This document shows positions 18,256-47,859 of a DNA stretch of 64,000 nt, one piece after another. A model generated the notes under the pieces. That model did not search any database. It saw only the letters and a program-made list of their open reading frames with translations, and was not told where the DNA came from. The translations under genes were made by a program, and so were the position numbers. Origin of the DNA: a virus; the UHGV virus genome UHGV-1353844; one strand, given 5' to 3'. How positions within the stretch are numbered: position 1 is the first letter of the stretch; the number at the start of each line of letters is the position of its first letter.

Positions 18256-18555
18256 TTAACGATTCTTGGTCGGAAGAAGAAGACGGCGTTTGTGCCAGAA
18301 TTCAAAGTAGGTCTCTACCCACTCGGTGACTTCTTCCGATTTTTCAGGATAGGGGTTCTCAATAGACTCGAAACGACGTTTGTTGCGCTCGTCGATTTCT
18401 AATTCCATCACGCGCTTACCGTTAGGTAAAGAAGTCACGCTAAGAATCTTACCTACTTGAATAGGCTTACCTTCTTTGTCTTTTTTCACCGGGGTAAGAT
18501 AGATTTCCGGTTCCAGACGAGGCGTGGTGTTTCGAGTCAGTAATTTGATTTTCAT
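18256..18555 (-). CDS. Hypothetical protein (99 aa)
   Basis: ORF directly upstream of RecA-like gene. Confidence 0.45.
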   Translation of the reverse strand: MKIKLLTRNTTPRLEPEIYLTPVKKDKEGKPIQVGKILSVTSLPNGKRVMELEIDERNKRRFESIENPYPEKSEEVTEWVETYFEFWHKRRLLLPTKNR

Positions 18556-44958: not shown

Positions 44959-45924
44959 ATGGAGAAATCCAGCGTTGACTTTTTCTCGATTGGTATCGTC
45001 GCGGAAGACAAACCCCGTGGTACAGATCGGGTAAAAGTGATACCAATTGAAACCAACTTTGCGAACCCTACCGTTGTACAATCAGTTTCCTCAACCGCTG
45101 AAAAGGTACACGATACTGGGGGTGCTATCGACAACCTAACGATTAAAACCGGTAACACGATTACTGCAAAGTGGTGGAAATTTAATTCCAACCGAATTAA
45201 TTCCCCAGACGTTAAGCGAGAAGATTACGTTATCTTGCTACGTCTAGGGCAAACTGATATTTATTTTTGGATTGATTTGAATTTCGCTAACGTTAAGCGA
45301 TTAGAGGATGCGGTTTACGCGTGGTCGGCTGACCCGGAAAACCAGATGGCGGATGACTTGTCGAACGCGTATGTGTTAAACGTCTCAACGATTGACAAAC
45401 ACGTTACCCTAAGAACAAGTATGGTGAATGGGGAGAAAGCGGCGTGGTTATTCCAATTCGATAACGCTAACGGGTCGTGGCAGTGCGTTGACCATAAAGG
45501 GAATAAGTATTACATTAACTCGGTGGAAGACGATTTAGGTTTTGAGAACGCGATGCTCTCGAAAGTGAACATCAACAAAGAAGATGCGTTCATTTACGCA
45601 AAACGTTCGATTAACCTGGAAACGAAAACGATTAATGAGAAATGCGAAGTTCGGAATACCGAAGCGTCGAAATCGGTTACCTTTAAAACAGAAACCTGGC
45701 TAACTGAAGCTTCTGGTTCAACAACGTATAAAACGCCGAACTTTAAGCAAGAAGGTAACGAAGCGATGTTCACCGGTAATTTGGAAGTTGCTAAGAACTT
45801 CAAATACGGTGGTACGGGCGAAGGCGTGGGTATCTTTACGGTTAAGGATGCGGTGATTTCCGGTATTACCTTCAGCGTACACATCCACGACGGCGTCCAT
45901 GGCCCAACTTCAGGCCCACGCTGA
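44959..45924 (+). CDS. Hypothetical protein (321 aa) with C-terminal His-rich SVHIHDGVHGP segment; possibly a tail or spike-associated protein
   Basis: ORF with AAGGA RBS, first gene of the + strand block. Confidence 0.5.
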   Translation: MEKSSVDFFSIGIVAEDKPRGTDRVKVIPIETNFANPTVVQSVSSTAEKVHDTGGAIDNLTIKTGNTITAKWWKFNSNRINSPDVKREDYVILLRLGQTDIYFWIDLNFANVKRLEDAVYAWSADPENQMADDLSNAYVLNVSTIDKHVTLRTSMVNGEKAAWLFQFDNANGSWQCVDHKGNKYYINSVEDDLGFENAMLSKVNINKEDAFIYAKRSINLETKTINEKCEVRNTEASKSVTFKTETWLTEASGSTTYKTPNFKQEGNEAMFTGNLEVAKNFKYGGTGEGVGIFTVKDAVISGITFSVHIHDGVHGPTSGPR

Positions 45925-46043
45925 TTTCCCCTTTTTCTTACGCTGGTATTATATATTGTGACCTGACGTTGGTAAGCTTCTTATCAACACTTTTCTTAAA
46001 CCTCATCGTTTAGTTAAGCAGGCCACTTTTTTCGCGCACTCAC

Positions 46044-46063
46044 TCCTCCCTTCGGGGAGGAGC
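46044..46063 (+). terminator. Hairpin (CTCCTCCC-TTCG-GGGAGGAG) about 120 nt downstream of the 321-aa gene
   Basis: GNRA-like TTCG loop; weak T-tract; coordinates approximate. Confidence 0.35.
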
Positions 46064-46123
46064 TATCTTATGCTTTGGTTGTAACACGATACAGTCCTTC
46101 CTTTCTTTAACTGGAGAGTAGCT

Positions 46124-46333
46124 ATGGCTATTAAAGAATTCTCTTCTGCTGAACACATTCCTGAAGAGTTCAAGAAAATTGGTAACGTAAGCGCTTTCGG
46201 TGATACCGTAGACGACGTTACTGCTAAGCTGGCTGTCGAAGCTGAAAAGATCGGCGGTGAAGCGTTTAAAGTTATCGGTATTTCCGGTAACAACAAACTG
46301 CACGGTAACGCGATTGTCTACAAAAAAGACTAA
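46124..46333 (+). CDS. BhsA/YcfR-like DUF1471 domain protein (69 aa) lacking a signal peptide
   Basis: GNVSAFGDTVDDVTAKLAVEAEKIGGEAFKVIGISGNNKLHGNAIVYK aligns with recalled mature BhsA (GTISANAGTNLGSLEEQLAQKADEMGAKSFRITSVTGPNTLHGTAVIYK). GGAGA RBS; no upstream in-frame start. Confidence 0.6.
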   Translation: MAIKEFSSAEHIPEEFKKIGNVSAFGDTVDDVTAKLAVEAEKIGGEAFKVIGISGNNKLHGNAIVYKKD

Positions 46334-46350
46334 GTGAAAAAAACGTGCTA

Positions 46351-46375
46351 CTCCTACCCTCTTAGAGGGTAGGAG
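46351..46375. terminator. Bidirectional terminator (CTCCTACCCTC-TTAG-AGGGTAGGAG) flanked by A-tract and T7 tract
   Basis: Between convergent genes 46333 (+) and 46381 (-); coordinates approximate. Confidence 0.6.
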
Positions 46376-46380
46376 GTTAC

Positions 46381-47859
46381 TTATTTTTTTCTTGCACGGA
46401 AACGATGCATTTCCAAATAGACTTTTTCCCAGGGACCGAAAGGTCCTACGATTGCCTGTGCATCGTTAATTTTCTTCTGGTTATACCAACGGGCCTCACG
46501 GAACACGTAGTTTTGACTGTCGAATTCCGTGGTGTTAAATACCCATTCCCCTTCTTCCCACGTCGGCCAATAAGCAACGGTTTTACCGAAGCGGTTTAAC
46601 AGATAGCCCAGCTGTTTTTCCCCATCAGGGTCATTAGGATCTTTAAGGTATAAACGTCCCCAGATAGCGTTGTGAGAAACCCCCACAACTTCTTCTTCCA
46701 GATACGGATTATCCACCGTAAAGATAAACGACGACTCGTGGGTTAAAAGCGCCTTTAATGTTTCTGGGTTGCGGATACGCTGTACGCTGGTCGGGGATGA
46801 CAGATCGCCAACACCGATGCTATCCCAGTCGTAATAACGTCGGGTTTCTAACACAGTACGCGCAACGTCAAAGTTCGGTAACGAGACCATAATGGCTTTG
46901 TCGGAGAAGTACCCAGTAACCGGTAACCAGTGTATCAGACCCCCGATAACAAACCCCACGGTTTTACCCGTAATAGATTCCGGTAAAGAAATCATTAACG
47001 TGGAATAATAGTCACGGGTGGTGTCGAGTTTGTTTAGGGTCAAGTTAGCAATGGGGTACGTTTTAACATTCCCCAATTTACTAAAGACCATGCAGCCGAT
47101 ATCCGGTGTCCCTGCACGACGTACTATCTTACCCGCGCCCGGTAAACGTACACCAACTGTATCCGACTGATGTGGTACCCATTGACCGTTGATGTTGTAC
47201 AACACCCCGTTACGGTATTTGTCTTTCCATTTATCTTCGCAAACAATCACAACGTCGTCAGCATCGTCTATACTGAAATCTTGACTGTAATGGTAACCGG
47301 GAGGACACAGGTAGGTTTCTACTGGAACATCGGCATTAATCGATTGGTAGTGTGCCCAATCAAACTCTAACGTCGGTAAACCGTCTTTCAACGCAGAGAT
47401 AACCACACCGGCTTTTTCATTCAGCCAGTCTTGTAACGTATCGGTACGGTTTTGTAAGTCAGCGAGGTGATATTGGCTAATTAACGTATAGTCTTTACCA
47501 AGCGCACTCAGACCGACTTCGAAAATATGGTAATCAGAACACAAGGTTTCTAAGGGTTGCGTGACGTCGATGGCTCCCCAGGTACGGGTCTCTCGAGAGA
47601 AGCCAAAAGCGCTGTCAGGCCGCACTTGATAAGCAGTAGTCACAGCTCTTTTCCTCAATAGATTCAAGTCATAGTATGAACTCGACGCCCACGGACTATA
47701 GGAGTAGATAATGGCTGTCGTCCTAGACCCACACTTCAAAGAACCGGGGAATAAAATAACCGGTGAAGCGGTCGCCGTCATTGGTACGAAGTACCGAATG
47801 TTGGTACCTGCCCACGCCCCTTTTTTCACCACATCCCTGGTGGTCAAGAGCGGCGGCAA
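46381..47859 (-). CDS. Hypothetical protein (up to 492 aa) on the minus strand at the head of the tail-fibre block; start uncertain (track start is TTG; first ATG at 47781 has no clear RBS)
   Basis: Long ORF filling 46381-47710 where no + strand ORF exists; 5' end overlaps the divergent start of the 1440-aa gene. Confidence 0.45.
   Translation of the reverse strand: MPPLLTTRDVVKKGAWAGTNIRYFVPMTATASPVILFPGSLKCGSRTTAIIYSYSPWASSSYYDLNLLRKRAVTTAYQVRPDSAFGFSRETRTWGAIDVTQPLETLCSDYHIFEVGLSALGKDYTLISQYHLADLQNRTDTLQDWLNEKAGVVISALKDGLPTLEFDWAHYQSINADVPVETYLCPPGYHYSQDFSIDDADDVVIVCEDKWKDKYRNGVLYNINGQWVPHQSDTVGVRLPGAGKIVRRAGTPDIGCMVFSKLGNVKTYPIANLTLNKLDTTRDYYSTLMISLPESITGKTVGFVIGGLIHWLPVTGYFSDKAIMVSLPNFDVARTVLETRRYYDWDSIGVGDLSSPTSVQRIRNPETLKALLTHESSFIFTVDNPYLEEEVVGVSHNAIWGRLYLKDPNDPDGEKQLGYLLNRFGKTVAYWPTWEEGEWVFNTTEFDSQNYVFREARWYNQKKINDAQAIVGPFGPWEKVYLEMHRFRARKK

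Follow-up and report, generated by a model that had tools for sequence, protein, structure and literature searches.

A leaderless DUF1471 gene beside the central tail-spike gene of a phiKZ-like jumbo phage: a candidate accessory virion protein of host origin

What use might a lytic jumbo phage have for a domain that enterobacteria typically place in their envelope, when the phage version has no signal that would export it? The question is raised by a short gene in the window, by which we mean the whole 64,000-nucleotide stretch of the virus genome UHGV-1353844 that was analysed. The gene (46124..46333, + strand) codes for a 69-aa product of 7.4 kDa with a pI of 5.6 (MAIKEFSSAEHIPEEFKKIGNVSAFGDTVDDVTAKLAVEAEKIGGEAFKVIGISGNNKLHGNAIVYKKD), identical to the RefSeq protein WP_079772428.1. 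An earlier note on this DNA had described it as a monocistronic gene for a cytoplasmic copy of the BhsA-type stress-protein domain, and took the missing leader as a hint that the protein works inside the cell, for instance by mimicking or sequestering a host factor. Below we present the evidence for the domain, its setting and its expression signals, and then ask where the protein is likely to act.

The domain itself is readily recognized. The Pfam profile PF07338 matches residues 17-67 along positions 2-55 of its 55 with an E-value of 3.4e-10, its 40.3 bits exceeding the gathering cut-off of 27 bits and thereby removing the possibility that a profile search would find no significant similarity to DUF1471 (YdgH/BhsA/McbA-like) proteins. 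The nearest solved chain by sequence, mature Salmonella YahO (2ma4/2noc), aligns to residues 9-68; hence, the earlier description of a DUF1471 domain of about the size of the mature host protein holds. An AlphaFold model made from this one sequence only (pLDDT 80), and thus giving moderate confidence in the fold, has a strand at 16-26, a helix at 29-43 and strands at 46-53 and 59-68; its top fold matches in the PDB are SrfN (2ma8), STM0082 (2jna) and YdgH (4evu, YdgH-III), with probabilities of 0.91-0.99 and TM-scores of 0.6-0.67. The protein is accordingly modeled, at that moderate level of confidence, with the alpha+beta fold of the solved DUF1471 domains. At the level of the subfamily, the BhsA equivalog model NF047859 is the best of five NCBIfam DUF1471 models at 47.4 bits, below its cut-off of 90 bits; no NCBIfam equivalog cut-off is reached, and the orthologue from phage SPN3US, gp172, scores best with the McbA model rather than that of BhsA. 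Judged by these models, the window protein is a member of the DUF1471 family, not BhsA, and to name it “multiple stress resistance protein BhsA” is too specific, the score lying well below the equivalog cut-off.

That label, or the family name, is already attached to the gene in public records: SPAsTU (MH221129) has “bhsA, multiple stress resistance protein”; Stratton (KX397373), Kwan (KX397369) and Wellington (MH426724) have “putative multiple stress resistance protein BhsA”; and the SPN3US RefSeq entry, pEa_SNUABM_43 and WP_079772428.1 have “DUF1471 domain-containing protein”. The four BhsA-named orthologues are 55-78% identical to the window protein and are all leaderless. The novelty implied in the earlier description thus falls away, the gene being known as DUF1471 or BhsA in both GenBank and RefSeq; in the literature searched, we found no paper that links DUF1471 or BhsA with jumbo phages. 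Hence, the identity of the domain, the family of phage proteins and the detection in virions discussed below are on record, whereas the following are new here: the uniform lack of leaders across the family; its status as a discrete BhsA-derived subfamily; the purifying selection; the lack of justification for the name “BhsA”; and the organization of the locus as a clade-specific cassette after the central spike, framed by two covarying hairpins, in the slot of the phiKZ PAAR tip.

The absence of a signal peptide, which the earlier note had claimed, is upheld. An in-frame TAA (46082-46084) lies 14 codons 5' of the start with no ATG, GTG or TTG in between; hence, a missed upstream start cannot supply a leader. 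In ten syntenic orthologues, the only alternative upstream starts would add 2-12 codons, too few for a signal peptide. Further, the phage N-terminus is hydrophilic, with a maximal 10-residue Kyte-Doolittle hydropathy of 0.84 over the first 40 residues as against 2.0-2.9 in the leader-bearing bacterial homologues, and every bacterial homologue retrieved has a typical leader. Two sets of candidates were rejected: apparent leaders in 92-aa and 115-aa database variants trace to an over-extended gene call and stop-codon read-through, and putative leaderless copies on plasmids of E. coli and E. albertii proved to be normal, leader-bearing proteins of 80-84 aa. A Sec signal and a periplasmic or outer-membrane location are described for “most” DUF1471 members, and the fold forms without a leader, as in the SssB-I construct (PMC4092069). 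No Sec signal was found in the window protein; such a leader is typical of the family but not defining for PF07338.

The phage proteins stand apart from their bacterial counterparts. The full-length match to phrog_8068 (residues 1-69 along profile positions 1-70 of 70; E 1.1e-31, 110 bits), together with pairwise dN/dS values of 0.01-0.2 among orthologues where dS is unsaturated, makes the gene more than a chance ORF, and it is under purifying selection. By tblastn, the protein is found in 60 phage records in GenBank (best 78% identical), which are jumbo phages of about 200-250 kb with hosts, namely Erwinia, Salmonella, Escherichia, Cronobacter and Proteus, that all belong to the Enterobacterales; the gene is also carried by Derbicusvirus. 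The nearest catalogued orthologues, at 71-78% identity, are those of SPAsTU, pEa_SNUABM_4, ChrisDB and phiEaH2. A profile search of 5.8 billion proteins recovered about 30 phage-type clusters at 96-121 bits (66-92 aa, on contigs of up to 250 kb) and, below a clear gap, bacterial BhsA-type proteins of 84-86 aa with leaders at no more than 72 bits; the same two groups emerged from an exhaustive HMMER scan of 1.84 billion representatives. Among bacterial sequences, BhsA proteins of Yersinia and Serratia come closest, and a neighbor-joining tree over 55 columns unites the leaderless sequences in one group with weak support (49%). By these comparisons, the leaderless phage proteins are a discrete BhsA-derived subfamily.

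The members of this subfamily are uniformly acidic, with pI values of 4.4-5.7 versus 5.4-9.8 for the nearest bacterial mature domains. Hence, binding of polyanions or LPS in the manner of SrfN, which we considered as a function, is not favored. Domain fusions that might serve as a functional clue were not found in the profile search of 5.8 billion proteins, which returned only single-domain proteins with short acidic tails. The one longer product comes from the Erwinia phage Wellington, which has a second, tandem leaderless DUF1471 gene (gp189), with a Pfam match over residues 22-66 (E 6.5e-7) that is followed by about 120 acidic low-complexity residues, probably disordered. Several other phage members bear short acidic C-terminal tails.

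The setting of the gene gives the next line of evidence. Its upstream neighbor, outside the cassette proper, is a 321-aa central tail-spike (cell-puncturing) gene (44959..45924, + strand), matching phrog_3216, “baseplate assembly protein”, at E 5e-112. Its identity follows from two matches: residues 4-259 with phiKZ gp164 (PDB 6orj, E 2e-23), and residues 266-320 with the Mu gp45 apex domain (3vtn/3vto/9ki1, E 8e-4), including an H-I-H motif. The spike is, thus, a mosaic of a phiKZ gp164-like body and a Mu gp45-type H-x-H apex, which phiKZ gp164 is without. On the other side lies a convergent 421-aa gene (46381..47646, - strand; phrog_3337), homologous to SPN3US gp171; it is labelled “virion structural protein” in relatives, and gp171 itself was detected in SPN3US virions. 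Beyond it come genes for very large proteins, the positional counterparts of SPN3US gp170 and its neighbors, all of which were detected in SPN3US virions. As a minor point of annotation, a 492-aa ORF with a TTG start (46381-47859, - strand) runs over the beginning of the divergent 1440-aa gene; the circular 222,441-bp sequence NZ_CP134650.1 and all relatives have instead a protein of about 420 aa (1263 nt, to 47646), and the longer ORF is probably over-extended, with the true start being the ATG at 47646.

The window shares one gene order, namely spike, DUF1471, convergent virion gene and large virion protein, with all 10 of the GenBank genomes inspected, which represent Seoulvirus, Erskinevirus, Machinavirus, Wellingtonvirus and Derbicusvirus. 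In RAY and N1M2, whose spikes are of this type, the slot is empty and the spike gene abuts the convergent gene; in phiKZ, it is filled by the 88-aa PAAR spike-tip protein gp163.1, matching PF05488, whose homologues were found only in Pseudomonas-type relatives. Thus, the DUF1471 cassette is a clade-specific insertion at the convergent junction. Like the window gene, that for gp163.1 codes for a small protein immediately 3' of the homologous central-spike gene (gp164 in phiKZ). However, the likeness is positional only: fold and sequence are unrelated (PF05488 as against PF07338), the window protein matching the latter and not the former; and in phiKZ the two genes adjoin directly, while in the window the spike and DUF1471 genes are set apart by 200 nt of regulatory sequence. 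Further, a separate tip protein is not expected in the window phage, as its spike carries its own Mu gp45-type apex.

The intervening sequence has features of its own. The 199-nt spacer from spike to DUF1471 is only about 50% identical between phages, yet it has a conserved plan. Directly 3' of the spike stop codon lies a promoter-like motif, TTAC-N15-TGTG (P1; 45938..45960, + strand), with TTAC-N15-T[AG]T[GA] at this position in 9 of 9 aligned phages and ATAC in Wellington. In phiKZ, middle promoters have AAanTTACc centered near -24, whereas in late promoters TATG is necessary, its G being +1 (PMC4666361); P1 resembles these middle and late elements and, by analogy, is a putative promoter. 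Further downstream is the 12-mer GCCACTTTTTTC (46022..46033, + strand), which in the form G[C/T]CACTTTTTTC is unchanged in 9 phages of 4-5 genera except for a single C/T difference, and occurs once in the window; a few nucleotides 5' of it we noticed TCG(C/T)TTG. Around 46022-46033 neither a conserved RNA structure nor a match to Rfam was found. Then comes a hairpin, CTCCTCCC-TTCG-GGGAGGAG (T1; 46043..46062, + strand; found by a terminator scan, -16.6 kcal/mol), which is present in 8 of 9 relatives, absent in SPN3US, and has compensatory changes at 5 of its 7 pairs. T1 is probably a terminator or insulator after the spike gene. We also considered a more extensive structured RNA across the upstream region of about 200 nt; only T1 was supported and no Rfam family matched. 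The succession of P1 and, about 100 nt downstream, the conserved T1 (45938-46075, + strand) is kept in 9 phages, and could give rise either to a short non-coding transcript of about 115 nt or to an extended, structured leader on the mRNA for DUF1471.

In eight relatives, the interval between T1 and the gene contains TTTTTTAC-N16-TATGC, of which the window has only TTATGC after an apparent deletion. The TATG therein (46069..46072, + strand) is a candidate start site for the non-virion RNA polymerase, and the G at 46072 as +1 would give a 52-nt 5' UTR. TTTTTAC-N16-TATG also occurs 5' of the gene starting at 18555 (- strand) in the window; across the window, TTAC-N14-17-TATG is not enriched (10 observed versus 10.4 expected from shuffling). 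We infer, by analogy, that a dedicated phage-polymerase promoter, set between two hairpins, serves the DUF1471 gene, a call drawn from cross-phage conservation and the phiKZ analogy only.

The signals closer to the coding region had been correctly recognized beforehand. The good ribosome-binding site is the GGAG at 46113..46116 (+ strand), 7 nt before the ATG as read from the sequence, and (T)GGAGA or GAGG stands at this position in all orthologues. The bidirectional terminator directly 3' of the gene (T2; 46337..46390) consists of A7 (46337-46343), a GC-rich 11-bp stem with a 3-nt loop (46351-46375; -21.6 kcal/mol, z -5.2) and T7 (46384-46390); the hairpin lies within the 47 nt that separate the convergent stop codons, and the terminator is common to both genes. 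Ten phages have this hairpin, 8 of its 11 pairs showing compensatory changes, and by this covariation T2 is a genuine bidirectional terminator. The supposed monocistronic unit, too, looks transcriptionally insulated, with T1 upstream and T2 downstream, its promoter being assigned by analogy.

The sole experimental data within phrog_8068 concern SPN3US gp172 (SPN3US_0172, YP_009153466), the syntenic orthologue, and come from one study. It resembles the window protein in being a leaderless DUF1471 protein of the same size class (68-70 aa), coded for in the same slot with the same downstream hairpin, but differs in being only 42-43% identical and in lacking T1. In CsCl-purified SPN3US virions, gp172 was identified by 4 unique peptides and 6 spectra, with 81% coverage and 100% identification probability, and was called “the smallest SPN3US virion protein” (PMC5694885). 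Its spectral count per kDa was 0.86, comparable to that of the portal (0.93) and those of gp168-171 (0.74-1.41) and above that of the spike gp173 (0.23); it was placed neither among the proteins flagged “Head” nor among the processed ones (PMC5694885). It was also the only wild-type virion protein that went undetected in 47(am1) mutant particles, for which the authors suspect a technical cause, the low-mass gel region having been left out; they note that the status of gp172 needs more work (PMC5694885).

Taken with the fixed position in the tail module, this detection makes a low-copy accessory virion protein the best-supported reading. We propose that a host-derived DUF1471 domain was captured as a self-contained cassette and is used as an accessory virion protein, probably of the tail or baseplate, and we give this proposal roughly an even chance of being right. 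Briefly, we advance the following mechanism. A single capture would have taken place in the ancestor of the phiKZ-like group comprising SPN3US, Erskinevirus, Machinavirus, Wellingtonvirus and Derbicusvirus, the captured domain being closest to BhsA-type proteins. It would have entered at the convergent junction after the spike gene as a cassette of upstream hairpin, phage-type promoter, ribosome-binding site, gene and bidirectional terminator, and may be expressed late. The signal peptide would have been lost as the protein no longer reached the envelope through Sec; since virions assemble in the cytoplasm, no leader would be needed. The protein would, then, be made in the cytoplasm alongside the other virion proteins and be incorporated at low copy number, most likely in the tail or baseplate. 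Its action may still take place outside the cytoplasm, on the virion or on the host envelope during adsorption and penetration.

Several observations weigh against this proposal. The detection comes down to 6 spectra for an orthologue of 42% identity in a single study, and that orthologue was missing from the 47(am1) particles. Many related jumbo phages have this spike but not the gene; hence, it cannot be a core structural part. A promoter and terminator of one's own are typical of non-structural accessory genes too, and, in this case, the promoter is assigned by analogy while its generic motif is not enriched in the window. Further, the uniform acidity argues against a polyanion-binding face like that of SrfN and leaves no concrete envelope ligand.

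These points lend some weight to the earlier idea that the protein is a non-structural cytoplasmic accessory, binding or titrating a host factor for instance, with its trace in virions being adventitious; we consider this rather unlikely, a rival and not the lead. Its proponents could cite the absent signal peptide, the moron-like or accessory-like cassette with its own transcription signals, and the dispensability of the gene in related phages. They could add that gp172 gave a weak signal in virions, and none in one mutant preparation, in a paper that itself deems some low-count proteins non-specific (PMC5694885), and that a second leaderless copy with a 120-aa acidic tail, as in Wellington, would be unusual for a fixed structural part. 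However, the first of these does not discriminate: to our knowledge, tailed phages make every virion protein without a leader, and thus a missing signal peptide is compatible with a place in the virion as much as in the cytoplasm. As to the trace being adventitious, gp172 was identified with 81% coverage at 100% probability, and its mass-normalized count equals those of the adjoining bona fide tail proteins. The characterized DUF1471 proteins, moreover, are all periplasmic or outer-membrane proteins with no known cytoplasmic partner (PMC4092069), and at least 5 genera have the gene at this place in the tail module. Hence, the step from a leaderless protein to intracellular mimicry or sequestration is unsupported, with gp172 having been detected in virions and the gene sitting within the tail/baseplate module.

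Alternatively, the protein could be internal to the head, packaged there and leaving with the DNA and the ejection proteins into the host envelope or cytoplasm, which we regard as improbable. The 47(am1) result would fit, as gp172 is the sole wild-type virion protein undetected in those particles and gp47 is a processed head protein; so would the S-A-E at residues 8-10 of the window protein, which is a motif of the phiKZ-type protease. However, the authors suspect that the miss is technical, gp172 is listed neither as a head protein nor as processed, and the gene lies in the tail module rather than among the head genes. SPN3US cleaves at A-X-E and the N-terminus of gp172 has no such motif; hence, it is not conserved. 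A prohead-protease propeptide was rejected on the same grounds, S-A-E not being conserved and gp172 being neither motif-bearing nor processed.

A bolder variant is that the DUF1471 domain sits on or near the spike and is delivered mechanically into the host periplasm at infection, bypassing Sec, much like cargo riding on a type VI secretion spike. We offer this as a long shot. Were it true, the domain would imitate or antagonize host DUF1471 or RcsF-fold envelope-stress proteins, and could blunt or trigger envelope-stress signaling, capsule induction or superinfection in the first minutes of infection. Finally, a soluble factor released at lysis, which would replace Sec export, and acting on neighboring cells or the biofilm matrix would agree with the influence of host DUF1471 proteins on surface properties, biofilm and attachment (PMC4092069), but it leaves the fixed position beside the spike gene and the virion detection unexplained, has to contend with an acidic surface unlike that of the polysaccharide-binding SrfN, and is very hard to credit.

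Returning to the accessory virion protein that we favor, it is instructive to set it beside known systems. With the enterobacterial BhsA/YcfR, YbiJ, McbA, YahO, YhcN and SrfN, the window protein shares the Pfam domain, the predicted alpha+beta fold, the Enterobacterales range and a conserved C-terminal segment, G-N-N-x-x-H-G-x-A-x-x-Y-K. It differs from them in having no Sec signal, falling below the NCBIfam cut-offs, being acidic and belonging to the tail module of a lytic jumbo phage; and while the host proteins are in the periplasm, its orthologue was detected in virions. The cassette likewise recalls phage morons, being a single host-derived gene with its own terminator hairpins and putative promoter, set at a tail-gene junction and absent in relatives. 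However, classical morons belong to temperate phages, are expressed from the prophage by the host RNA polymerase and benefit the lysogen, whereas this cassette is found in a lytic phiKZ-like phage and its promoter-like motif is of the phage-polymerase type.

The locus, thus, presents a clean case of a lytic jumbo phage that captured a host envelope-protein domain and stripped it of its export signal, the domain being kept under selection across several genera beside the cell-puncturing device. If it is indeed a tail or baseplate accessory, it would offer a handle both on what DUF1471 domains bind, a question open for 25 years, and on how enterobacterial phiKZ-like phages deal with the envelope. 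There is also a practical side: “BhsA” labels on phage genes should give way to the weaker “DUF1471 domain protein, virion-associated in SPN3US”, as the over-annotation could mislead safety screens of therapeutic phages, and the gene should not count as stress-resistance or virulence cargo in therapy assessment.

Lastly, the wider provenance of the window deserves mention. No near-identical phage DNA was found in the phage collection searched, the nearest catalogued relatives being Erskinevirus (Asesino, phiEaH2, Stratton) and Seoulvirus (SPN3US), with about 74-76% nucleotide identity over conserved genes. The neighborhood instead matches “plasmid unnamed1” of Enterobacter ludwigii 51A:C, namely NZ_CP134650.1, in which the DUF1471 protein is 100% identical and the surrounding genes are equal in size, spacing and orientation; in gene content, this sequence is a phiKZ-like jumbo phage rather than a plasmid. 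The isolate came from a gull cloaca. The exact 69-aa protein also occurs in at least 1000 contigs, of up to 249 kb, from assemblies of Salmonella and E. coli isolates. This suggests that the phage travels widely with enterobacterial cultures while being filed as a plasmid, perhaps reflecting a carrier state or pseudolysogeny of the jumbo phage in those cultures.
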